Of a stretch of DNA of 25,110 nucleotides, positions 12,868 through 23,723 are shown piece after piece (position 1 is the stretch's first letter; every line of letters begins with the position of its first letter). A program made the position numbers and the translations under genes. This DNA is from a virus (taxonomy: Duplodnaviria; Heunggongvirae; Uroviricota; Caudoviricetes), in the IMG/VR virus record IMGVR_UViG_2648501787_000018; one strand, written 5' to 3'. The notes beneath the pieces are model-generated. The model was not told the DNA's origin and did not search any database. It saw only the letters and a list, made by a program, of their open reading frames with translations.

Positions 12868-13257
12868 TCAGGCGGCTGCACCCGCCGTTTTCTCGTACTT
12901 ACTGATAGTGATCTCGACCTTCCCTTTCGGGATAACCGGTCCCCACTCCACCAGCATTCTTTTCACCTGTCTGTCGTCTTCCCACACACCCGCGTGGGTC
13001 AGGGCGTCAAACAGCGCCTTGTTATAGTTGTCCAGATCACGGATCCGGTTATCCGGCGGAAACAACACGATCTCCACTGAAGCAGGTGCCGACGTTGGTT
13101 TCGGCAGACGACGTAACTGCTCAACTATTGCTGCGCACGCCGCGCTCTGAAATTTTCGCCCCGCCTCGCTTATCAGGCTCTTACCAGCAAATGCCCCTTT
13201 GTTGGGGTGTCGCCAGTACGTGTTCACACTGGGCGGGAAAGGAAGGATCAACTTCAT
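12868..13257 (-). CDS. rusA: Holliday-junction resolvase RusA
   Basis: 129 aa; LPFPPSVNTYWRH ... RDLDNYNKALFDALTHAGVWEDDRQV matches the RusA family. Start overlaps upstream stop (ATGA). Confidence 0.85.
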   Translation of the reverse strand: MKLILPFPPSVNTYWRHPNKGAFAGKSLISEAGRKFQSAACAAIVEQLRRLPKPTSAPASVEIVLFPPDNRIRDLDNYNKALFDALTHAGVWEDDRQVKRMLVEWGPVIPKGKVEITISKYEKTAGAAA

Positions 13258-13580
13258 ACTTTCAGGCCCCTCTCATGTAACCAGTGGGCTGCACGCAACC
13301 TGGCGCTCTCCTCACTGGCAAGCAGTGCGCGGATGATACCGACCGCTTCGCTGTCGTCGTCCTTCACTGCGGTATGAAGCGTGATCCCCCGGGCCACGCC
13401 ACGCTTTATCGTGATGACGCCTTTTTTCTCCAGTGCGCGAAGATGCTCCACCGCTGCATTCACTGAACGGTATCCCAGCATGGTTGCCACCTCCTGATTG
13501 GTTGGCGGAAAGCCACGCTCTTGCTGGTAAGAAATCAGCATATCCAGCACCTGCTGCTGGCATTGAGTTAACGTCGTCAT
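13254..13580 (-). CDS. LexA DNA-binding-domain-only protein (no S24 peptidase domain)
   Basis: LTQCQQQVLDMLISYQQERGFPPTNQEVATMLGYRSVNAAVEHLRALEKKGVI parallels the LexA N-terminal winged HTH; the protein ends after about 108 aa with no Ser/Lys protease motifs. Confidence 0.7.
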   Translation of the reverse strand: MTTLTQCQQQVLDMLISYQQERGFPPTNQEVATMLGYRSVNAAVEHLRALEKKGVITIKRGVARGITLHTAVKDDDSEAVGIIRALLASEESARLRAAHWLHERGLKV

Positions 13581-15539: not shown

Positions 15540-15760
15540 GCAGCACCTCCGAGATGCTTCATGTTTTTTCCGGAGCGAAAGGCTATAAGCGGCATACTGA
15601 CGCGGTAATTACGGCCCAGCGGTTCACAAACCACCTTCTGACATTCACGGTCAACCAGGCTAACACGTAGAACATGCCCTGCAGGCGTGGTGTACCACTG
15701 ACCCGGACGAGGACAACGGAAAGTCTGATTGGTAAAACGTTTGAAAATATTCCGGATCAT
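15536..15760 (-). CDS. Hypothetical small protein (74 aa)
   Basis: Track ORF; both ends overlap neighbours in ATGA fashion, consistent with a real co-translated gene. No motif recognised. Confidence 0.4.
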   Translation of the reverse strand: MIRNIFKRFTNQTFRCPRPGQWYTTPAGHVLRVSLVDRECQKVVCEPLGRNYRVSMPLIAFRSGKNMKHLGGAA

Positions 15761-16302
15761 TTGCGCCCCCTTACCTCTGAAGAGTTCAGCGACGAATGAA
15801 TAAGACGGGCAAGAAATGCCGCATCGTTAATTCGGTCATACAGACTTACAGCCAGCGGTGATTCAGCTTTTTCCAGCATGGGATAAAGCTGCTGCAACCA
15901 GACCTGATGAATTGATGAAATGTAGGAATAGAGAACGCTGGCGTTATGTGCAACGTCGCTCGGTACAGAGGGCTTTGAAAGCTGTTTCTCCATCTGGTTA
16001 AAGGCATTGATGTATGCCTCTTTGAACTGGGCAGCACGTTTACCCGTGAAACCCATAGCAAGAAACGCAAAGCCATCGCGGGTTATTTGATAGCAAGGTA
16101 GTTTGCGGCCTGAAGCGTCGATATAACCACTTAACACAAAATTGTGTTCAGCAAATTCAGCGGAGCATTCAAGGTTTCGAATTCTATCTAAAACCCGCTC
16201 ATGCCGTTTAGTAAAGTAGTTAGCAACTGCAAGAGATGTAGTGACAGCACGACCATTGATGATCGTGATTTCAGGGTGAACAAAGGTTGGGATCGTAGCC
16301 AT
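15757..16302 (-). CDS. Rha-family phage regulatory protein (about 181 aa); the same frame stays open upstream to 16905
   Basis: ITIINGRAVTTSLAVANYFTKRHERVLDRIRNL ... YQITRDGFAFLAMGFTGKRAAQFKEAYINAFNQME matches the Rha domain. ATG at 16302-16300 has GAGG 8 nt upstream. The track ORF (382 aa) adds 201 upstream codons of atypical composition. Confidence 0.7.
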   Translation of the reverse strand: MATIPTFVHPEITIINGRAVTTSLAVANYFTKRHERVLDRIRNLECSAEFAEHNFVLSGYIDASGRKLPCYQITRDGFAFLAMGFTGKRAAQFKEAYINAFNQMEKQLSKPSVPSDVAHNASVLYSYISSIHQVWLQQLYPMLEKAESPLAVSLYDRINDAAFLARLIHSSLNSSEVRGRK

Positions 16303-16901
16303 AATGGCAGCCTCGGTAGCAAGCTTAAAAAACTCACCACATAAGACGCCAATCATAGAGGTGGTGAGACGTACAGAGTTGGCGTTACCGGCGGCTACCC
16401 TTACCGGCGCATCTTGCGATGCCCCTGTACGCCCCACCATAATTTGGGCGTGACAAAATAATGCGTACAAAAAAACCGCATCTACGCGGTTGTACGCGGT
16501 AGCCTTCTCCAGGACGCCAATCCCGGCACCCGCTTTATAAGGTGCCTGAACAGTGTAACGTCCCGGAATGGCAGAATCAATGTGCTGGTGGTCCTTCACA
16601 CTCAACAAAATCACGCCTGAATTTCCACAAAGGACTAAAGCACTCATGCGGGTAGTCTTTGCGAAGATAGATAACGCGCTGTGTTTCTGGCTCCCAACGA
16701 ATAACATGGACATAAAGCCCTCTTCCGTCACGAAACCAGCGGTTAAGTTCCTGCACAACTCGCCCCCCACAGTCAGGTAAAGTTCTCTGTGGTTACTTAC
16801 AGCCAGGTGATTTGGTAATCTGCATTCATGCCGTAACAACAGGTGTTCAGCGACACTGACCACCAGCTGTTGCGACAAACGGTTATTTGCCGTTAAACTG
16901 T

Positions 16902-17453
16902 TCATGCGTTAGTTTCTCCACAGACACAAAACGCCACGACGCCCGGAGCTGCACACTCGCGGGCGTCACTCTTTTCTGGAGCGCAGAAGATTTTGTAGAC
17001 CAGTGCTGCATGTTCCTGGAGCTTCGAAATTGACAGATACAACTCATCATTAATTGCTGTCTGCTCGTGTGGCTCCACGACCCCATCTTCGATTGCCGAA
17101 CGAATCTGCTTTGAGTAATTCCCGATCTGTTCGATGACTTCCAGCAGGCGCTGGTTTATATCGGCGTTCTCTACTTCCTCAATTTCAGGAAGCGATACGA
17201 ACACCCCACCAGCAGACTGTGCGACAGCATCCGCAATGTAGTGAGTGCCAGCCGCGCGCTGTAAAACCATTGCCCATCCCAGCGGGAAAATCTGATCGCC
17301 ATCTGCACGAAGGCGGTTGAATAAAGCGTTCTCTGTTACATCCAGCCAGTCAGCAGCTTCAGCGTAACCCCCAGGCAATGCCGCGATAGTTTTTCTGACA
17401 GCTTTCACGTGCCACTCAGGTTGTTTTTCCACTTTCCAGTGATGCTTACCCAC
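16902..17453 (-). CDS. CII-like phage regulatory protein (tentative, Phage_CP76-like)
   Basis: 183 aa, directly downstream of the cro-like gene in the cII position; GTG start with AGGAGG 6 nt upstream. Family from memory, moderate certainty. Confidence 0.55.
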   Translation of the reverse strand: MGKHHWKVEKQPEWHVKAVRKTIAALPGGYAEAADWLDVTENALFNRLRADGDQIFPLGWAMVLQRAAGTHYIADAVAQSAGGVFVSLPEIEEVENADINQRLLEVIEQIGNYSKQIRSAIEDGVVEPHEQTAINDELYLSISKLQEHAALVYKIFCAPEKSDARECAAPGVVAFCVCGETNA

Positions 17454-17706
17454 GGCTTACCTCCTGTTCCTGTGGTTTAAACCCATTCTGGTTTTGGCTA
17501 GATTGAAAACGTGCCGGATAAAGAATCTGCATTTCGCTGATTTCACCCTTAAAAAAATTGGCCAGACGTTCTGCAAGATCGATAGATGGAATTTGTTCCA
17601 GTCTTTCAATACGACTCAGCGTCGCTGGATTGACCTGAACGCCCGCAGCAACATGCTGCAAAGTAAATCCGTGCGCCTTACGCACATTCCGTAATGGTGA
17701 TTGCAT
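17446..17706 (-). CDS. cro: Cro-like HTH (XRE-family) regulator
   Basis: 86 aa; HTH (HGFTLQHVAAGVQVNPATLSRIE); divergent from the CI-type repressor across an operator-rich region; GGAGG RBS. Confidence 0.75.
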   Translation of the reverse strand: MQSPLRNVRKAHGFTLQHVAAGVQVNPATLSRIERLEQIPSIDLAERLANFFKGEISEMQILYPARFQSSQNQNGFKPQEQEVSRG

Positions 17707-17803
17707 ATAACCTCCACATATTGCGTGATGAGCATATTATTTCACGCAAATATTTTGCGCAAGTTGATTTGCTTAACGCGCAATAAAGAAATGTAATAAA
17801 CGC
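17707..17803. promoter_or_regulatory. Immunity-region operator/promoter (OR-like, divergent pR/pRM)
   Basis: Several dyad elements: TTGCGTGA-n13-TCACGCAA, CGCAAAtatTTTGCG, TTGCttaacGCGCAA, between divergent cro-like and cI-like starts. Confidence 0.6.
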
Positions 17804-18496
17804 ATGAACATAGGAAATCGAGTCAGACAACTTCGCCAGGCGAAGAACATGAAAATCGCCGATCTCGCTGAAGCAATAGGAGTGGATGCGGCGAATATCT
17901 CGCGCCTCGAAACAGGTAAGCAGAAACAATTCACTGAACAAGCCCTGAGTAATATTGCCAGGAGCTTAGGTGTTGATATTGCTGATCTCTTTACCTTAGA
18001 CCTCAAAAGTAATACTGTATGTAAAAACAGTATTAGTGAGGATGTTGCGCAGGTGAAGGATGTATTCCGTATTGAAATGCTGGATGTCAGTGCCAGTGCG
18101 GGAAATGGCCTTATCCAGGGCGGTGATGTCATTGATGTGATTCATGCCATTGAATACAGAACTGATAATGCTGTATCGATGTTTGGTGGACGACCAGCAA
18201 ATCACATTAAAGTTATCAACGTTCGTGGGGACAGTATGTGTCCAACCATTGAGCCAGGAGATCTCATCTTCGTTGATATCAGTATCAATCAGTTTGATGG
18301 GGATGGTATATATGTATTTGGTTTTGATGATAAAATTTACGTCAAACGACTGCAAATGATACCTGATAAACTGCTGGTAATTTCTGATAATCAGATTTAC
18401 CGCGAATGGGGAATTACCAGCGAAAACGAACACCGGTTTATGGTCTTTGGAAAGGTCTTAATCAGTCAGTCACAAACCCTTAAGCGACACAATTAA
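17804..18496 (+). CDS. cI: CI-type prophage repressor (HTH plus S24 LexA-like peptidase domain)
   Basis: 230 aa; N-terminal HTH (MKIADLAEAIGVDAANISRLETGKQ); C-terminal peptidase core (VRGDSMCPTIEPGDLIFVD ... IYVKRL) with Ser and Lys. Confidence 0.9.
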   Translation: MNIGNRVRQLRQAKNMKIADLAEAIGVDAANISRLETGKQKQFTEQALSNIARSLGVDIADLFTLDLKSNTVCKNSISEDVAQVKDVFRIEMLDVSASAGNGLIQGGDVIDVIHAIEYRTDNAVSMFGGRPANHIKVINVRGDSMCPTIEPGDLIFVDISINQFDGDGIYVFGFDDKIYVKRLQMIPDKLLVISDNQIYREWGITSENEHRFMVFGKVLISQSQTLKRHN

Positions 18497-18517
18497 CCCC
18501 CTACCTCAACATCAATT

Positions 18518-18540
18518 AGCCACCAGAAGGTGGCTTTTCA
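18518..18540 (+). terminator. Rho-independent terminator downstream of cI
   Basis: AGCCACC-agaa-GGTGGCT followed by TTTTC. Confidence 0.5.
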
Positions 18541-18552
18541 TTACCCATCAAA

Positions 18553-18591
18553 TTGCATATCTCGCAATAAAAACACTTGCATAATGCGCAA
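18553..18591. promoter_or_regulatory. Putative OL-like operators / pL region
   Basis: Two 15-bp dyads, TTGCatatctcGCAA (18553-18567) and TTGCataatGCGCAA (18577-18591); the second closely matches TTGCttaacGCGCAA in the OR region. Promoter hexamers not confidently placed. Confidence 0.4.
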
Positions 18592-19015
18592 CTTCATTTT
18601 ATCTTTCTTTCCAGACCTACAAACAAGGTACTAACAAAATTTGGTTGTAACACGGCGTATGGCACATGCGTCGTTAGCGGTCTGGGGACGTTAAAGGGGA
18701 CAATCCACTCCTTGCTCGGGCAAACAAACCAGGTAGCCGGAATGTGCAAGTCAATGATGATGCTGATAAGACGCCTAACCAGCGTGGCGATTCGGTTTGA
18801 CGCCTGGGAAGAGACCAGGGTGCAACGATGAGGGCATTTATGGAGCCGCGACAAAGTGTGGTGCCGTAACTGGCTAAGTGCTCTCAGCGTTGTGGTAATC
18901 CGCGAAATGGCGCGGCGGTAAGTATGGCGGGGTTACTCTTTCCCCGTTGAGGACACCGGATTGTCAGGTTGACCATACGCCTGAGTGACACCCCCACCAC
19001 AACAGCCACTGCTTT

Positions 19016-19062
19016 GGCGGTACCAGTTTGTACACTTGCTTCCGGCTGGTACCGCTCTTTTT
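19016..19062 (+). terminator. Putative terminator (tL-like) in the leader upstream of the left operon
   Basis: GGCGGTACCAG-n19-CTGGTACCGC followed by TCTTTTT. Confidence 0.4.
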
Positions 19063-19199
19063 ACAAAACAGAGAAGAGCATCACCGGACGACGGGCTCAT
19101 AACCCAATCCACCCGGGCGGCTGCCACCGCAGGTGTTCTTCTCTGTTTTGTGGAGAAACCAACCGACCTTGCAGGGTCGATATGATGAGGAGCAGCAAA

Positions 19200-19562
19200 A
19201 TGGCTAGCGAACGCAGTACTGATGTGCAGGCATTTATCGGGGAGCTGGACGGCGGCGTATTTGAAACCAAAATCGGCGCAGTTCTCAGTGAAGTCGCTTC
19301 CGGTGTGATGAACACGAAAACCAAAGGTAAGGTCTCGCTCAACCTGGAAATCGAACCGTTTGATGAGAACCGTGTGAAAATCAAACACAAACTCTCATAT
19401 GTTCGCCCGACTAACCGCGGGAAAATTTCCGAAGAAGACACCACCGAAACGCCGATGTATGTCAATCGCGGTGGTCGCCTGACTATTCTGCAGGAAGACC
19501 AGGGACAATTACTGACTCTTGCCGGTGAACCTGACGGAAAACTCCGCGCAGCAGGTCATTAA
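19200..19562 (+). CDS. YfdP-like phage protein (120 aa)
   Basis: Internal ATG at 19200 with GAGGAG 9 nt upstream; the track's longer form has no RBS. Size and position before a YfdQ-like gene match the CPS-53 order. Confidence 0.5.
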   Translation: MASERSTDVQAFIGELDGGVFETKIGAVLSEVASGVMNTKTKGKVSLNLEIEPFDENRVKIKHKLSYVRPTNRGKISEEDTTETPMYVNRGGRLTILQEDQGQLLTLAGEPDGKLRAAGH

Positions 19563-19627
19563 TATCGTTCTTAATTAACTGATTATTTATCTCATCACTG
19601 AATATCTTTATATAGTGAGGACTTATT

Positions 19628-20452
19628 ATGTCTCAGAACTTAGACGCAACCGCAATTAATCAAATCCATGCCCTTATTTCTGCTCAGGGTGTTAATGAAA
19701 TTATCAGTAAGATTGGAGCCGATGCTGTGGCATTGCCTGAGAATTTCCGCATTCATGATCTGGAAAAATTTAATTTAAATCGCTTCCGTTTCCGTGGTGC
19801 GCTTTCCACTGCCAGCATCGATGACTTTACCCGTTATTCTAAAGATCTTGCAGATGAAGGCACCCGCTGCTTTATCGATGCCGATAATATGCGAGCCGTC
19901 AGTGTGCTTAACCTGGGTACTATTGATGAACCAGGTCACGCAGATAACACCGCCACCCTCAAACTGAAAAAGACAGCACCGTTTTCTGCTCTGTTGTCTG
20001 TTAATGGCGAGCGTAACTCCCAGAAGTCACTGGCAGAATGGATTGAAGACTGGGCCGACTACCTTGTGGGCTTTGATGCTAATGGTGACACCATTCAGGC
20101 AACCAAAGCGGCCGCGGCAGTCCGTAAAATCACAATTGAAGCAAACCAGACCGCTGATTTTGAAGACAATGACTTCAGCGGCAAACGCTCCCTGATGGAG
20201 TCTGTCGAAGCGAAGACCAAAGACATTATGCCAGTGGCATTTGAATTTAAATGCGTTCCGTTTGAAGGCCTGAAAGAACGTCCGTTTAAATTACGCCTCA
20301 GCATTATCACTGGCGATCGTCCTGTACTGGTTCTGCGCATTATTCAGCTGGAAGCGATGCAGGAAGAAATGGCTAACGAATTTCGTGATCTGCTTGTTGA
20401 GAAATTCAAAGACAGCAAAGTAGAAACCTTTATTGGTACTTTCACCGCCTGA
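19628..20452 (+). CDS. YfdQ-like protein (DUF2303 family), 274 aa
   Basis: GAGGA RBS; length and neighbours fit CPS-53 YfdQ. Function unknown. Confidence 0.55.
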
Positions 20453-20580
20453 TTTCATTACTGCAAATGCCCCTGCGGGGGCATTTATGGAAACGTAATT
20501 AACTCAATAATCACCGGATGGTGAGAGCTTCCTTTTAGCAGAATTCAGCGCGGTGCAGCGCATATAAAGTGGAGACCGAA

Positions 20581-21117
20581 ATGTCATTTATTAAAACTTT
20601 TTCCGGGAAGCATTTTTATTATGACAAGATAAATAAAGACGACATCGTGATTAACGATATCGCAGTTTCCCTTTCAAATATCTGTCGCTTTGCAGGACAT
20701 CTTTCACACTTCTACAGCGTCGCCCAGCATGCGGTGCTTTGCAGCCAGCTGGTACCGCAGGAATTTGCTTTTGAAGCGTTAATGCATGATGCAACAGAAG
20801 CATATTGCCAGGACATCCCCGCTCCACTGAAACGCCTTCTTCCTGACTATAAACGGATGGAAGAAAAAATAGATGCCGTAATCCGTGAGAAATACGGGTT
20901 ACCCCCGGTTATGAGCACGCCTGTGAAATATGCCGATCTCATCATGCTGGCAACCGAACGCCGCGATCTCGGGCTTGATGATGGCTCTTTCTGGCCTGTA
21001 CTGGAAGGCATCCCGGCAACAGAGATGTTCAACGTGATTCCACTGGCACCGGGCCATGCCTACGGGATGTTTATGGAACGTTTTAACGAGTTATCGGAGT
21101 TACGCAAATGCGCATGA
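20581..21117 (+). CDS. HD-domain phosphohydrolase, YfdR-like 5'-deoxynucleotidase (178 aa)
   Basis: HD motif in ...FEALMHDATEAYCQDIP; ATG 20581 with GGAG 7 nt upstream (track ORF starts at a GTG 4 codons earlier). Confidence 0.75.
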   Translation: MSFIKTFSGKHFYYDKINKDDIVINDIAVSLSNICRFAGHLSHFYSVAQHAVLCSQLVPQEFAFEALMHDATEAYCQDIPAPLKRLLPDYKRMEEKIDAVIREKYGLPPVMSTPVKYADLIMLATERRDLGLDDGSFWPVLEGIPATEMFNVIPLAPGHAYGMFMERFNELSELRKCA

Positions 21118-21470
21118 ATGTTTTCGAAATGGAAGGGTTTCTTCGCGGGAAATGTGTACCGCGAGATCTGAAAGTGAACGAAACAAATGCTGAGTACCAG
21201 GTACGTAAATTCGATGCGCTTGAAGCTAAATGTGCGGCACTGGAAAACAAAATAATACCAGTGTCAGCTGAACTGCCACCAGCAAATGAAAGTGTTCTGT
21301 TATTTGATGCTAACGGAGAAGGCTGGCTAATTGGCTGGCGTTCTCTCTGGTACACCTGGGGACAAAAAGAAACCGGAGAATGGCAGTGGACATTTCAGGT
21401 CGGGGACCTTGAAAACGTCAATATCACTCACTGGGCAGTAATGCCGAAAGCACCGGAGAATAAGAAATGA
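21108..21470 (+). CDS. DUF551-like phage protein (YfdS-like, 120 aa)
   Basis: C-terminal ...NVNITHWAVMPKAPE resembles the DUF551 tail (ATHWMPLPEPP in the paralogue at 22573-23151). Start overlaps upstream stop. Confidence 0.55.
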   Translation: MRMNVFEMEGFLRGKCVPRDLKVNETNAEYQVRKFDALEAKCAALENKIIPVSAELPPANESVLLFDANGEGWLIGWRSLWYTWGQKETGEWQWTFQVGDLENVNITHWAVMPKAPENKK

Positions 21471-21670
21471 GCGTGATAAAAACTCATACAGGAATTGTTA
21501 TCACCCGAGACGGTCCGCAGGTAAAAAAACTGCACCAGACAAAGCGGATGTGGGTCGTCGGAAAAAACGAGTTTTACCACAAAGAAAACGGACGCCGCCA
21601 CTTTGCAGAAAATACTCGCCGCCGACTGCTGATCGATACCATCAAGCCTATCGAGGTGAAGCATGTTTAA
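21467..21670 (+). CDS. Hypothetical small protein (67 aa)
   Basis: ATGA overlap with upstream gene; GGAGA RBS. No motif recognised. Confidence 0.45.
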   Translation: MSVIKTHTGIVITRDGPQVKKLHQTKRMWVVGKNEFYHKENGRRHFAENTRRRLLIDTIKPIEVKHV

Positions 21671-21902
21671 ACAGAACGAAAAATCTATCGCTCAAATTGC
21701 TGAGTATATCCCGCGTGCGTGCCGGGGTATGCAGTTGCAGGAAGCCAAAGCACGCCTGGAGAAAAAAATTGCGCTCTATATCGATGACGGCTGTGATGCT
21801 GCCGTTCTTAACGCGGCGTTCGCGCCAGCTCTTAACAGTCATACGCGAGAGTCTTTTTTTTCGTGCATCGCTGCGCAGATCCGTAAAGGAGGCAACCAGT
21901 GA
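21663..21902 (+). CDS. Hypothetical small protein (79 aa)
   Basis: Start overlaps upstream stop; GAGGTGA RBS. Confidence 0.45.
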   Translation: MFKQNEKSIAQIAEYIPRACRGMQLQEAKARLEKKIALYIDDGCDAAVLNAAFAPALNSHTRESFFSCIAAQIRKGGNQ

Positions 21903-22297
21903 GCAAGATTGACTATCAGGCACTGCGTGAGGCGGCGGAACGTGCAATTCAAGCAATGGAACGCCTGTTAATGTTGCCAGCTGCTGATGATTTGTTAAGT
22001 GAACAGGAACTTAAAGATTACGGTGTGGATATTGATGTGCTCAACGCCTTCAAATTTCTGACCGGACCAGAAACCGTGCTGGCGCTGCTGGATGAACTAG
22101 AAGCTAAAAACAAACGCATTACAGAACTGGAAGCGAGGGAAGTTCAATTACCGACTCGCTACGACCTTCGATATGGGCACCCAATAAATGCTGATAAGCG
22201 ACATGTCATGATACCTAAAGAAAATGGCAGTTGGCTTTGCCTGATTGACTTAGAACACGCACTACGCGTCGCTGGCATTCGCATCAAAGGAGAGTGA
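21899..22297 (+). CDS. Ead/Ea22-like phage protein (tentative)
   Basis: GTG start overlapping upstream TGA with GGAGG 7 nt upstream; MSKIDYQALREAAERA... coiled-coil-like. Assignment by resemblance from memory. Confidence 0.4.
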   Translation: MSKIDYQALREAAERAIQAMERLLMLPAADDLLSEQELKDYGVDIDVLNAFKFLTGPETVLALLDELEAKNKRITELEAREVQLPTRYDLRYGHPINADKRHVMIPKENGSWLCLIDLEHALRVAGIRIKGE

Positions 22298-22298
22298 T

Positions 22299-22562
22299 AT
22301 GGCAACTTTGACAAAAAAGGAACAGGCATGGTTGAGCGAATTACAGAACGTTCTTGATCGCTGCCCGTCACCGAAAAAAATTGGTTTTTACACCATTGGC
22401 GATAAAAGCATTTACCTGTATGACCTACGCCGCATGGATGAAATCATGGAGGCTCTTGATGATCGTTCGTCAATGGATTGGTGTGTTGCTGTCCATGATA
22501 TGAATGCCGGATTTGAAGAAAAGATTTTGTTCCCCTCGTCAGTTGAAAGCACTGCGGGTTAA
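22299..22562 (+). CDS. Hypothetical small protein (87 aa)
   Basis: GGAGAG RBS; tightly spaced in the operon. Confidence 0.45.
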   Translation: MATLTKKEQAWLSELQNVLDRCPSPKKIGFYTIGDKSIYLYDLRRMDEIMEALDDRSSMDWCVAVHDMNAGFEEKILFPSSVESTAG

Positions 22563-22572
22563 GGAGTAACAC

Positions 22573-23151
22573 ATGACCACTATTACCAAAGAACGTATTG
22601 AATTGTTCATTAAAAATCCGCTTGGAAACGGACTTACCCGTGGCGAACAAATGGAACTGGCACGAATTGCACTGGCATCACTGGCAGCAGTATCGGATGA
22701 ACGAGCAGCCTATGAATTATTTATGGAGAAGCGTTTCGGGGAATCTGTAGATCGCCGCAGGGCGAAAAATGGCGATAGAGAATACATGGCATGGGATATG
22801 GCGCTTGGCTGGATTATCTGGTGTCACCGCGCCGCCATGCTTCAGGCTGGAAACTTTCGGGAAAATAAGGATTCGTCAACCAATAATTTTCGGGAAACCT
22901 CGGAAACGTCAACCAACTCTCCGGTAACTCCGGATAGTTGGATAAGCTGTAGTGAGCGAATGCCTGAGAAGAATCAGAACGTGCTCATTTCGGTGAATTT
23001 CGATAGCTCTCTGGTTGAACCGCTAATATGCTCCGCACGCTATACCGGAAGCACTTTTCGGCGCGGAGATGCAACGATTAAGTCGGGTAATGGTATTGAG
23101 CAAGCAACTCACTGGATGCCGCTACCGGAACCGCCGCAGGAGGTGAAGTGA
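22573..23151 (+). CDS. Phage protein with C-terminal DUF551 domain (192 aa)
   Basis: AAGGAG RBS; C-terminal ...IEQATHWMPLPEPPQEVK is the DUF551 signature. Confidence 0.6.
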   Translation: MTTITKERIELFIKNPLGNGLTRGEQMELARIALASLAAVSDERAAYELFMEKRFGESVDRRRAKNGDREYMAWDMALGWIIWCHRAAMLQAGNFRENKDSSTNNFRETSETSTNSPVTPDSWISCSERMPEKNQNVLISVNFDSSLVEPLICSARYTGSTFRRGDATIKSGNGIEQATHWMPLPEPPQEVK

Positions 23152-23723
23152 TGAACAACTTAATGATCAACCTTGAGACGATGGGGAAAAATAAGGATGC
23201 GCCGATCGTTTCTATTGGCGCGGTGTTCTTCACTCCAGAAACCGGAGACATCGGACAAGAATTCTATGCGGTTGTCAGCCTGGACAGTGCTATGAAGCAA
23301 GGAGCTACACCTGACGGCGATACCATCCTGTGGTGGTTGAAACAAAGCCCTGAAGCGCGAGCTGCAATCTGTATTGATGATACTTTGTCGATCAGCGATG
23401 CTCTCTCAGAACTAAACCATTTCATTAACCGGCACGCAGACAATACGAAATATTTAAAAGTCTGGGGTAACGGGGCCACCTTCGACAACGTAATTTTACG
23501 TGGAGCTTATGAGCGAGCAGGACAAATCTGCCCGTGGGCGTACTGGAATGACCACGATGTACGCACGATCGTTACGCTTGGGCGTTCCATCGGATTCGAC
23601 CCCAAAATGGACATGCCTTTCGATGGCGAACGGCACAACGCCCTGGCTGATGCCCGTCATCAGGCAAAATATGTTTCCGCTATCTGGCAGAAATTAATTC
23701 CTGCCACCAGCACAGAATTATGA
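23151..23723 (+). CDS. 3'-5' exonuclease (DnaQ-like fold), phage-encoded
   Basis: ATG 23151 with GGAGG 7 nt upstream; N-terminal MINLETMGKNKDAPIVSIGAVFF (Exo I-like acidic motif), later WGNGATFDNVIL and ERHNALADARHQAKY (Exo III-like H..AL.DA). Confidence 0.6.
   Translation: MNNLMINLETMGKNKDAPIVSIGAVFFTPETGDIGQEFYAVVSLDSAMKQGATPDGDTILWWLKQSPEARAAICIDDTLSISDALSELNHFINRHADNTKYLKVWGNGATFDNVILRGAYERAGQICPWAYWNDHDVRTIVTLGRSIGFDPKMDMPFDGERHNALADARHQAKYVSAIWQKLIPATSTEL

Follow-up and report, generated by a model that had tools for sequence, protein, structure and literature searches.

DicF, a small RNA (sRNA) acting on cell division and metabolism, is encoded in the repressor-controlled early-left operon dicBF of Qin. 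The 5' end of its 190-nucleotide (nt) form depends on RNase III, and its short form is RNase E-dependent (PMC10448788). RNase III also makes the 3' end of the 72-nt DicF, at a long duplex (PMC5069750). A study from 2016 found no DicF in phage databases (PMC5069750). Here, we compare this locus and several others with a stretch of 25,110 nt from a virus of the Caudoviricetes (IMG/VR record IMGVR_UViG_2648501787_000018; termed the window). Its early-left transcript would begin with an untranslated leader of ~590 bases which, according to comparative analysis, is a mosaic of mobile, conserved folded RNA modules.

In lambda, the untranslated early-left leader contains nutL and an RNase III hairpin. 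The window resembles lambda in having long duplexes in the early-left leader before the ribosome-binding site of the first gene, but has neither an N gene nor a conserved boxA (a formal boxB search was not run). HK022, likewise a lambdoid phage without an N gene, has a promoter-proximal structured RNA (putL, with putR as its counterpart) in the transcript from the early-left promoter PL. The put RNA is ~70 nt long, comprises two stem-loops, begins at the extreme 5' end of the PL transcript and recurs downstream of the rightward promoter PR (PMC9378689).

The window shares with Qin not only the repressor-controlled early-left operon but also its layout: a long hairpin is followed by a domain termed module B, a terminator-ended small RNA, a second long duplex and the first downstream gene. 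In contrast to Qin, where ydfABC is located upstream, the window has a further RNA domain, module A, at this place, and dicB is replaced by yfdP. Furthermore, the window represents a functional-phage type of context. Modules A and B, two conserved mobile RNA domains that an earlier note on this DNA had overlooked, make up most of the leader (18652-19003). Already known are DicF, its long precursor and, in P1, the 'dicF-like region'. The B-C unit is new as a variant of the DicF-type locus in phages isolated as viable viruses, and module A and the cassette organisation with S hairpins appear to be undescribed. This substantial unexplained component could prove to be a new RNA class. Module A as a whole spans 18652-18893 and consists of a core and a 3' hairpin, S1. 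The elements of the leader are as follows:

18652..18820, + strand: 5' core of module A, a pseudoknotted RNA (covariance model R1, 137 bits, E 2e-47)
18653-18660/18666-18673: P1 hairpin of module A, loop GGCAC
18681-18685/18729-18733: P2 helix of module A, enclosing a variable hairpin
18732-18750: invariant 19-nt core of module A, GGUAGCCGGAAUGUGCAAG
18771-18774/18782-18785: P4 hairpin of module A, 7-nt loop CUAACCA
18777-18780 with 18794-18797: pseudoknot of module A, AACC with GGUU
18803-18807/18815-18819: P5 hairpin of module A, loop GAAGAGA
18822..18893, + strand: S1 hairpin, 3' domain of module A, 17-bp helix GCAACGAUGAGGGCAUU / AAGUGCUCUCAGCGUUGU with variable tip
18889..19003, + strand: module B, 5' domain of 'long DicF', 8-bp closing stem GUUGUGGU/ACCACAAC
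18900-18915: hairpin CCGCG/CGCGG of module B
18922-18927/18973-18978: stem GUAUGG/CCAUAC of module B
18928-18946: hairpin of module B with CUCUUU loop
18961-18966/18986-18990: pseudoknot UUGUCA/UGACA of module B
19004..19062, + strand: module C, sRNA-type element at the DicF position, with a short linker, a hairpin (19016-19028/19044-19056) and U5 (19058-19062)
19063..19151, + strand: S2 (D) hairpin, 20-bp perfect stem ACAAAACAGAGAAGAGCAUC / GGUGUUCUUCUCUGUUUUGU, directly after the terminator and before the yfdP ribosome-binding site

Conserved RNA folds in the leader

The region 18541-19199 carries operators and a PL-like promoter at its 5' side, is devoid of a conserved open reading frame (ORF) and exceeds its flanks in G+C content: 0.53-0.575 over 18700-19100 versus 0.36-0.43 in the 3' half of the cI-like gene and 0.39-0.49 downstream. 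The earlier note had described ~650 bp of GC-rich non-coding leader, with a cI terminator and OL-like operators but no convincing ORF up to a yfdP-like start at 19200. This description is borne out by the G+C profile and by tests of frame, periodicity and indels on 44 distinct homologues of the best-conserved 150-nt core. A reading frame is open in at most 21 of them. Their variable columns display no 3-base periodicity and are spread evenly over the three codon phases, and the core lengths fall into all residue classes modulo 3. The ORFs listed for this part of the window (84 aa, +; 86 aa, -; 66 aa, +) are not kept in the homologues and, as the note had remarked, lack the Arg-rich N-terminus of an N protein. 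The next convincing start codon after the cI-like gene is the ATG at 19200.

A missed gene encoding, for example, a small protein or a divergent N, or a site acting at the DNA level such as an origin, a recombination site or an array of protein-binding sites, is therefore hardly tenable, and we reject both on these comparative grounds. What speaks for a gene are the 'hypothetical proteins' called on the leader in mEp460, PhiR47_1 and CFT073; against it stand the lack of a conserved frame, of codon periodicity and of indels in multiples of three, and the fact that the CFT073 call is itself flagged as frameshifted. In addition, the compensatory changes and abundant G-U pairs described below, found for the + strand only, point to RNA and neither to DNA nor to protein. 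The comparative coding-potential analysis, which the note had named as a way to overturn a non-coding leader, detected no conserved coding gene. The calls are thus probably spurious. They comprise mEp460_037 and mEp460_036 (minus strand; L003 3598-4151) and the 'frameshifted hypothetical protein' of CFT073 (L261 2362-2671).

The structure of module A was read from an alignment and then scored on two alignments (A3 and A4) with 30 pairs and 500 shuffles. Standard pairs occupy 95.9% of the cells in A3 and 96.3% in A4, compared to 25-49% and 26-48%, respectively, when the partners are slid. In both alignments, 13 of the 30 pairs are changed on both sides, including the pseudoknot. For the main measures, the observed value was matched by 0 or 1 of 500 shuffles of A3 and by 0 of 500 of A4. 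The P4 loop pairs with a downstream GGUG or GGUU, and one pair of this interaction covaries (CG 38 / AU 6). Since G-U pairs are frequent, the RNA strand of module A is the + strand, i.e. that transcribed in the PL direction. Across genera and phage types, ~60 positions are invariant. These data argue for module A being a genuine RNA. RNAalifold proposed an alternative in which GCACAU of the P1 loop pairs with AUGUGC of the invariant 19-mer. This is disfavoured because all its positions are invariant and the local P1 covaries (GC 25 / AU 18 in one pair); it is possible only as a 4-bp loop contact.

Both computational checks that the earlier note had proposed were performed. The comparative folding revealed RNA-type covariation in the leader, and the scan with covariance models yielded no Rfam match: in Rfam 15, no family reached its gathering score or E<=10 in the leader of the window, and in P1, mEp460 and mEp390 the module A segment had no match at E<=0.1. 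A text search of the open-access literature for a core 15-mer of module A was negative as well. Module A is therefore apparently an undescribed RNA family with respect to Rfam release 15 and open-access text. Model R1 detected no second copy in the window and no copy in Qin, SfII or the immunity region of HK022.

Module B is known from Qin. Window 18889-19011 and Qin L001 3001-3123 share 88.6% identity over 123 nt (about 89-92% when module B is compared with the 5' domain of the 190-nt DicF). In Qin, this sequence is situated between ydfC and dicB and directly precedes the Rfam DicF match (L001 3133-3184). Module B is also 75% identical to the 'dicF-like region' of P1, ~100 nt downstream of Pban. 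Among 66 sequences, 96% of the cells are paired in the module B fold versus 26-58% with slid partners, and compensatory CG/UA exchanges occur in three helices, namely the closing stem, the GUAUGG stem and the pseudoknot. Hence, both sequence homology and a shared fold connect module B with the 5' domain of 'long DicF'. In the hairpin 18928-18946, a pyrimidine-rich loop of the UCCU/CUCC type is kept (UUAUUCCUU, CCUAGUCCU, CGACUCCUU; CUCUUU in the window) while the stem changes. This loop resembles an anti-Shine-Dalgarno sequence and could serve as a second seed in the long RNA. A function as a GcvB decoy was also considered: CACAACA at 18998-19004 matches the GcvB R1 target consensus that is used by AgvB (PMC4104026). 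It was rejected as the main explanation because this heptamer forms the 3' side of the stem that closes module B, which is conserved and covaries (GUUGUGGY/RCCACAAC).

Module C begins with a short linker and ends with the strong hairpin plus U-run that the earlier note had placed at 19016-19062, exactly where we find it. Its stem comprises 12-13 bp, and the 82 nt from 18985 to 19066 fold with -23.1 kcal/mol (z = -2.2). A simple terminator scan missed the hairpin because its loop exceeds 8 nt. As in Qin, hairpin and U-run follow a conserved upstream domain of 107 nt in a repressor-controlled operon, and module C shares with DicF the sequence UUUGGCGGUAYCAGUUU, which includes the hairpin start GGCGGUAYCAGUUU. 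In contrast to DicF, it lacks the 5' seed (UUUCUGGUGACG) and has a different loop. Rfam DicF (RF00039) found no match at E<=10 in 18300-19400, whereas the same search returned Qin DicF with 76.7 bits. In relatives, the segment after module B always consists of a short linker, a hairpin and a U-run, but seed and loop vary widely between lineages. Such a hypervariable segment that always ends in a terminator hairpin is as expected of a diversifying sRNA seed. The data support the view that hairpin and U-run are the 3' end of an sRNA-type element. A functional equivalent of DicF was rejected for lack of complementarity to ftsZ. RNAduplex, a crude measure that ignores intramolecular structure, gave -24.8 kcal/mol for the window RNA compared to a shuffled mean of -31.7; 97% of the shuffles equal or exceed the window RNA, and its pairing is located off the ribosome-binding site. 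DicF reaches -38.5 across -28..+27. B and C together thus belong to the DicF-precursor family as far as the precursor domain is concerned, but C is a different small RNA. The prophage anti-sRNAs AgvB and AsxR are comparable: they are short, end in a terminator and combine a constant 3' hairpin with a seed that varies (PMC4104026), but they are primary transcripts located at the PR' moron site.

Two long hairpins flank the B-C unit. S1 folds with -33.9 kcal/mol (z = -4.4). Its outer 15-20 pairs are kept in 35 of 36 distinct variants by at least 9 compensatory sequence versions, and the base helix measures 17-20 bp. For 19063-19205, which contains S2, the fold amounts to -54.2 kcal/mol (z = -4.35), and none of 200 shuffles was as stable. 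The S2 stem is kept in 15 of 17 distinct versions, some with compensatory changes. Hairpins of this type are found on both sides of the A core in epsilon15-like phages, before B in Qin and alone in the P1 ban leader. In the Qin hairpin homologous to S1, the RNase III-dependent 5' end of the 190-nt DicF has been mapped; a distance of 190 nt upstream from the DicF terminator leads to the 3' strand of this hairpin. At the place equivalent to S2, Qin has the long duplex where RNase III generates the 3' end of the 72-nt form. From this RNase III dependence and the 190-nt count we infer that RNA cassettes are punctuated by S hairpins as sites of RNase III; by analogy with Qin, S1 is probably a processing site and S2 probably a second one in read-through transcripts. 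The conserved end of the S hairpins, GUUGUGG, is the joint to which differing downstream modules are attached.

Relatives and distribution of the modules

The complete leader (703 bp) is present at >=80% coverage in 999 of 5426 complete E. coli genomes, and also in phages mEp460, cdtI, 2H10 and Ayreon as well as in many Stx2c phages, whose records carry no annotation there. Its sub-segments recur separately elsewhere. The invariant 19-mer of module A (GGTAGCCGGAATGTGCAAG) occurs in more than 120 IMG/VR loci, which form 42 clusters at 90% identity, and in 24 loci of GTDB species-representative genomes. The latter belong mostly to Enterobacteriaceae of a dozen genera, among them Kosakonia, Citrobacter, Klebsiella, Enterobacter, Kluyvera, Phytobacter, Buttiauxella and Ca. 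Erwinia dacicola. Exact matches were also encountered in an Oscillospiraceae and a Bacillota metagenome-assembled genome (L245 and L257), of which the L257 copy has the highest score of all (159.6 bits). Both are probably mis-binned contigs of enterobacterial phages.

Among 142 unique contexts of module A, 70 are located directly after an S24 repressor gene on the same strand, 42 are epsilon15-like and 11 are P1-like, i.e. before ban. In lambdoid phages, module A follows the repressor gene immediately. The genes downstream of these 70 copies are varied, and only 33 have yfdP. On the 3' side (147 unique contexts), the neighbours are an STnc100-like domain (37), tRNA-Arg (29) or module B (23); the neighbour is nearly always another RNA gene. 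The tRNA that directly follows is tRNA-Arg in 29 of 29 cases and begins exactly at GUGG. In the epsilon15-like phages TL-2011b, phiV10, SPN1S, Tyrion and BUCT711, module A stops exactly at the 5' end of tRNA-Arg. In epsilon15-like loci (L002, L005, L009, L010, L012), the A core is enclosed by two S hairpins and followed by tRNA-Arg with the anticodon UCU and one small gene; this unit is found in the divergent region between portal and terminase. The ~60 invariant positions, the absence of a linked protein gene and the constant association with a tRNA or tRNA-like start suggest that module A binds a conserved host component. A degenerate tRNA array was ruled out: ARAGORN detected neither tRNA nor tmRNA genes in the window, and a match to tRNA was absent from the Rfam scan. 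Module B and its analogues share with tRNA only the start, which consists of GUGG, 3-5 nt and a hairpin of 4-5 bp.

The ban operon of P1 (AF234173) offers another parallel to the window. A C1-controlled promoter is followed by ~650 nt of non-coding RNA in which a B domain is accompanied by a terminator-like hairpin and by an S hairpin, and module A belongs to the same operon. In contrast to the window, the modules are scattered, with three tRNA genes and the tci genes in between, and module A follows tRNA-Ile just before ban, as in P1-like phages in general. In the P1 ban leader (L008 1880-2530), the terminator-like hairpin GCCCATCTTCGGGTGGGC is succeeded by a T-run, and the S hairpin at L008 2239-2333 has z = -4.8. 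All modules of this leader precede tRNA-Asn and tRNA-Thr, and only the 'dicF-like region' is annotated.

STnc100/PasD (RF02076; 10.64898/2026.05.13.724894) resembles the leader in that it is a domain of ~200 nt with a GUGGUGA...CACCAC closing stem in front of a terminator hairpin. An STnc100-like domain is the most common 3' neighbour of module A, and in SfII such a domain stands in place of A and B, with the same C hairpin following, which underlines the cassette character of the leader. The described STnc100/Pas loci, however, are located near Q and the lysis genes and not at PL. The SfII copy scores 39.5 bits, below the gathering score of 47, and STnc100 has no match in the window at E<=10. 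In SfII (L004 3130-3160), the operators are the same and of module A only part of the P1 hairpin is left as a truncated remnant (ACGGTGCATGTGTCGTAAGCAG), followed by ~600 bp of unrelated DNA with a small ORF in opposite orientation. This looks like a replacement of module A.

GOLLD and ROOL are large ornate phage-associated RNAs that are often found beside tRNA genes. With them, module A has in common that it is a prophage-borne, highly structured RNA which typically abuts tRNA genes. It is, however, far smaller, is restricted to enterobacteria and matches neither of the two families in Rfam.

Possible functions of the leader

The control region of the leader was read from the sequence and searched for patterns and contains the following elements:

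18553-18567 and 18577-18591: two operator-like 15-mers, TTGC-N7-GCAA (pattern search)
18577..18605, + strand: PL-like sigma-70 promoter, -35 TTGCAT (18577-18582), 17-bp spacer, -10 TATCTT (18600-18605)
19164..19213, + strand: small hairpin (19164-19179), Shine-Dalgarno GAGGAG (19187-19192) and ATG of the yfdP-like gene at 19200

In the immunity region (17600-18700), the pattern search found a third 15-mer only at 17769-17783, in the PR/PRM region. The second 15-mer overlaps the -35 box, and the repressor would bind at these sites. The promoter is absent from the output of a consensus promoter scan. In related loci, TATCTT is located 7-10 nt 5' of module A. The promoter is predicted to be functional, with a transcript start at ~18612.

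We favour the view that the leader is a polycistronic array of non-coding RNAs that heads the repressor-controlled PL transcript, with a probability of roughly 0.55. Upon derepression, transcription would start at ~18612 and proceed through A, S1, B and C. Many polymerases would stop at the C hairpin and U5, yielding a primary RNA of ~450 nt, and the remaining ones would read through S2 into yfdP and the left operon. RNase III would cut the S1 duplex and, in the read-through RNA, the S2 duplex, and RNase E the linker before C. The products would be an A RNA of ~240 nt, a 'long' B-C RNA of ~175 nt and a terminator-ended sRNA of ~50-60 nt, as in Qin dicBF. The short RNA would act in trans as a base-pairing regulator with a seed unlike that of DicF. 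A and B would be stable, folded RNAs whose probable partner is a conserved component of the host.

Several points weigh against this model. No transcript data were found for the phage of the window or for module A. RNase III cleavage at S1 and S2 is an extrapolation from Qin, and the published cut numbering 813/814 could not be exactly reconciled with the coordinates; only the length of 190 nt fits. In about half of its contexts, module A is located right after PL, the place of nutL and putL, which fits a role in cis equally well. The array model leaves unexplained how the strong terminator is passed without an N-like protein, and the small RNA of the window has no known target.

The passage of the terminator is the starting point of the opposite view, in which A and/or B replace the missing N/nut as a cis-acting antitermination or anti-Rho leader that works like HK022 put. 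They would fold on the nascent PL RNA, bind RNA polymerase, pass the C terminator and resist Rho over ~590 nt. In agreement with the earlier note, no N-like gene was found: the ten left-operon ORFs (19200-23723) encode no antiterminator domain according to Pfam, which covers divergent N proteins poorly, and the leader has no conserved ORF. A strong terminator is located between PL and the first gene; module A is the first element after the repressor gene in 70 of 142 contexts in front of varied downstream genes, and its ~60 invariant positions suggest that it binds a conserved host machine. In Qin, P1 and the window, B is always just 5' of a terminator hairpin (terminator-like in P1) that polymerase has to pass on the way to dicB, ban and yfdP, respectively, so that B would be a better candidate for this role than A. 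Nevertheless, we consider such a leader unlikely. There is a single copy and nothing comparable on the PR side of the window, in epsilon15-like phages module A heads a tiny unit (A, tRNA, one small gene) that needs no antitermination, and in P1 it is situated ~2.3 kb downstream of the first terminator and therefore cannot act there. The boxA-like sequence is not conserved, and significant similarity to the put regions of HK022 is missing. A riboswitch-like or attenuator leader is still more doubtful. Here, the 3' strand of S1 (GCGUUGU, 18887-18893) overlaps the 5' half of the stem that closes B (GUUGUGGU, 18889-18896), and this overlap would serve as a conformational switch that is set by a ligand or factor on module A and decides on processing or read-through. 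The two helices do share GUUGU, both are supported by covariation, and the conservation of the A core is typical of aptamers. But ~200 nt and one entire folded domain separate this core from the terminator, the downstream genes are unrelated between contexts, unlike in a riboswitch regulon, and the GUUGUGG joint also precedes ordinary tRNA genes and hence looks like a module boundary or processing joint.

A broader proposal is regarded as tentative. Module A (18652-18893) might constitute a new class of structured phage RNA with a function of its own that binds a conserved host machine. This could be RNA polymerase, with module A as an N-independent antiterminator or anti-Rho element unlike put, or a host RNA-processing or anti-phage factor, for which module A would be a decoy carried along with phage tRNAs. 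Temperate enterobacterial phages, including P1 and Stx phages, would then build early 'RNA operons' from interchangeable cassettes that are split by RNase III hairpins.

The alternatives that the earlier note had left open, a structured leader involved in RNA-based antitermination or an sRNA, fared differently. A structured leader is upheld, as the region is non-coding and highly structured, and an sRNA is supported by the DicF-type position and the terminator hairpin. Membership in the put family of HK022, by contrast, fails in size, architecture, copy number and similarity. Whereas put has two stem-loops with a triplex in ~70 nt and occurs twice, module A is a multi-helix pseudoknot of 170-245 nt with five helices that occurs once, and its first conserved helix begins only ~40 nt after the presumed start. 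No second copy of any leader module exists in the 25-kb window. Model R1 had no match in HK022 24500-31500 (best E 3.4), and BLAST against the PL and PR sides of HK022 returned only strings of 8-12 nt at E>=0.49, i.e. at chance level. A relative of put was therefore rejected. The string CAUGCGUCGnnAGCG (13/15 nt) is common to the PL-proximal putL region of HK022 (L133) and the P1/J1-2 part of module A (window 18664-18680). It is probably a coincidence, as we expect ~0.15 such matches by chance, and was not used as evidence. The sequence GCUCUUUUUACAA (19054-19066) resembles rrn boxA but was dismissed: it is the terminator tail, and its first four bases vary in relatives (GUCC, GCCC, GACC).

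If module A is a functional RNA, a conserved regulator or effector has been overlooked in P1, Stx2c, cdt and epsilon15-like phages, which rank among the best-studied temperate phages. About one fifth of the complete E. coli genomes carry the full leader. DicF would be one variant of a larger family with a conserved structured precursor domain and a rapidly diversifying seed. This family would exist in phages that are viable viruses and not in cryptic prophages only, and some of them would carry a related small RNA with another seed. For N-less lambdoid phages of the mEp460, SfV and Stx2c type, the question can now be framed how early-left genes are expressed past a strong terminator. The 'hypothetical protein' annotations over the leader should be converted into RNA features.

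The surrounding immunity region

The window represents a lambdoid immunity region. Upstream of the leader, it contains:

16902-17453, - strand: cII-like gene
17446-17706, - strand: cro-like gene
17804-18496, + strand: cI-like repressor gene (helix-turn-helix and peptidase S24)
18518..18543, + strand: intrinsic terminator of the cI-like gene, hairpin 18518-18535 (stem AGCCACC/GGTGGCT, loop AGAA) and T-run TTTTCATT

The genes 3' of the leader are yfdP-, yfdQ- (DUF2303) and yfdR-like. On the minus strand, the Rfam models for C4 antisense RNA (68.4 bits) and isrK (60 bits) match in tandem at 16357-16545. The pair overlies the 5' part of an antirepressor-like ORF with Rha/Ash domains (15757-16905, -) in the PR operon. 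C4/isrK and this ORF form a control module of the P1/P7 ImmI antirepressor type within a lambdoid prophage, and mEp460 has the same pair. An ORF of 108 aa (13254-13580, -) comprises only the DNA-binding domain of LexA (PF01726, 2.4e-19). Finally, the left-operon ORF 23148-23723 (+) encodes a Rv2179c-like 3'-5' exoribonuclease (PF16473, 4.5e-74), an interesting neighbour of a leader that is rich in RNA elements.

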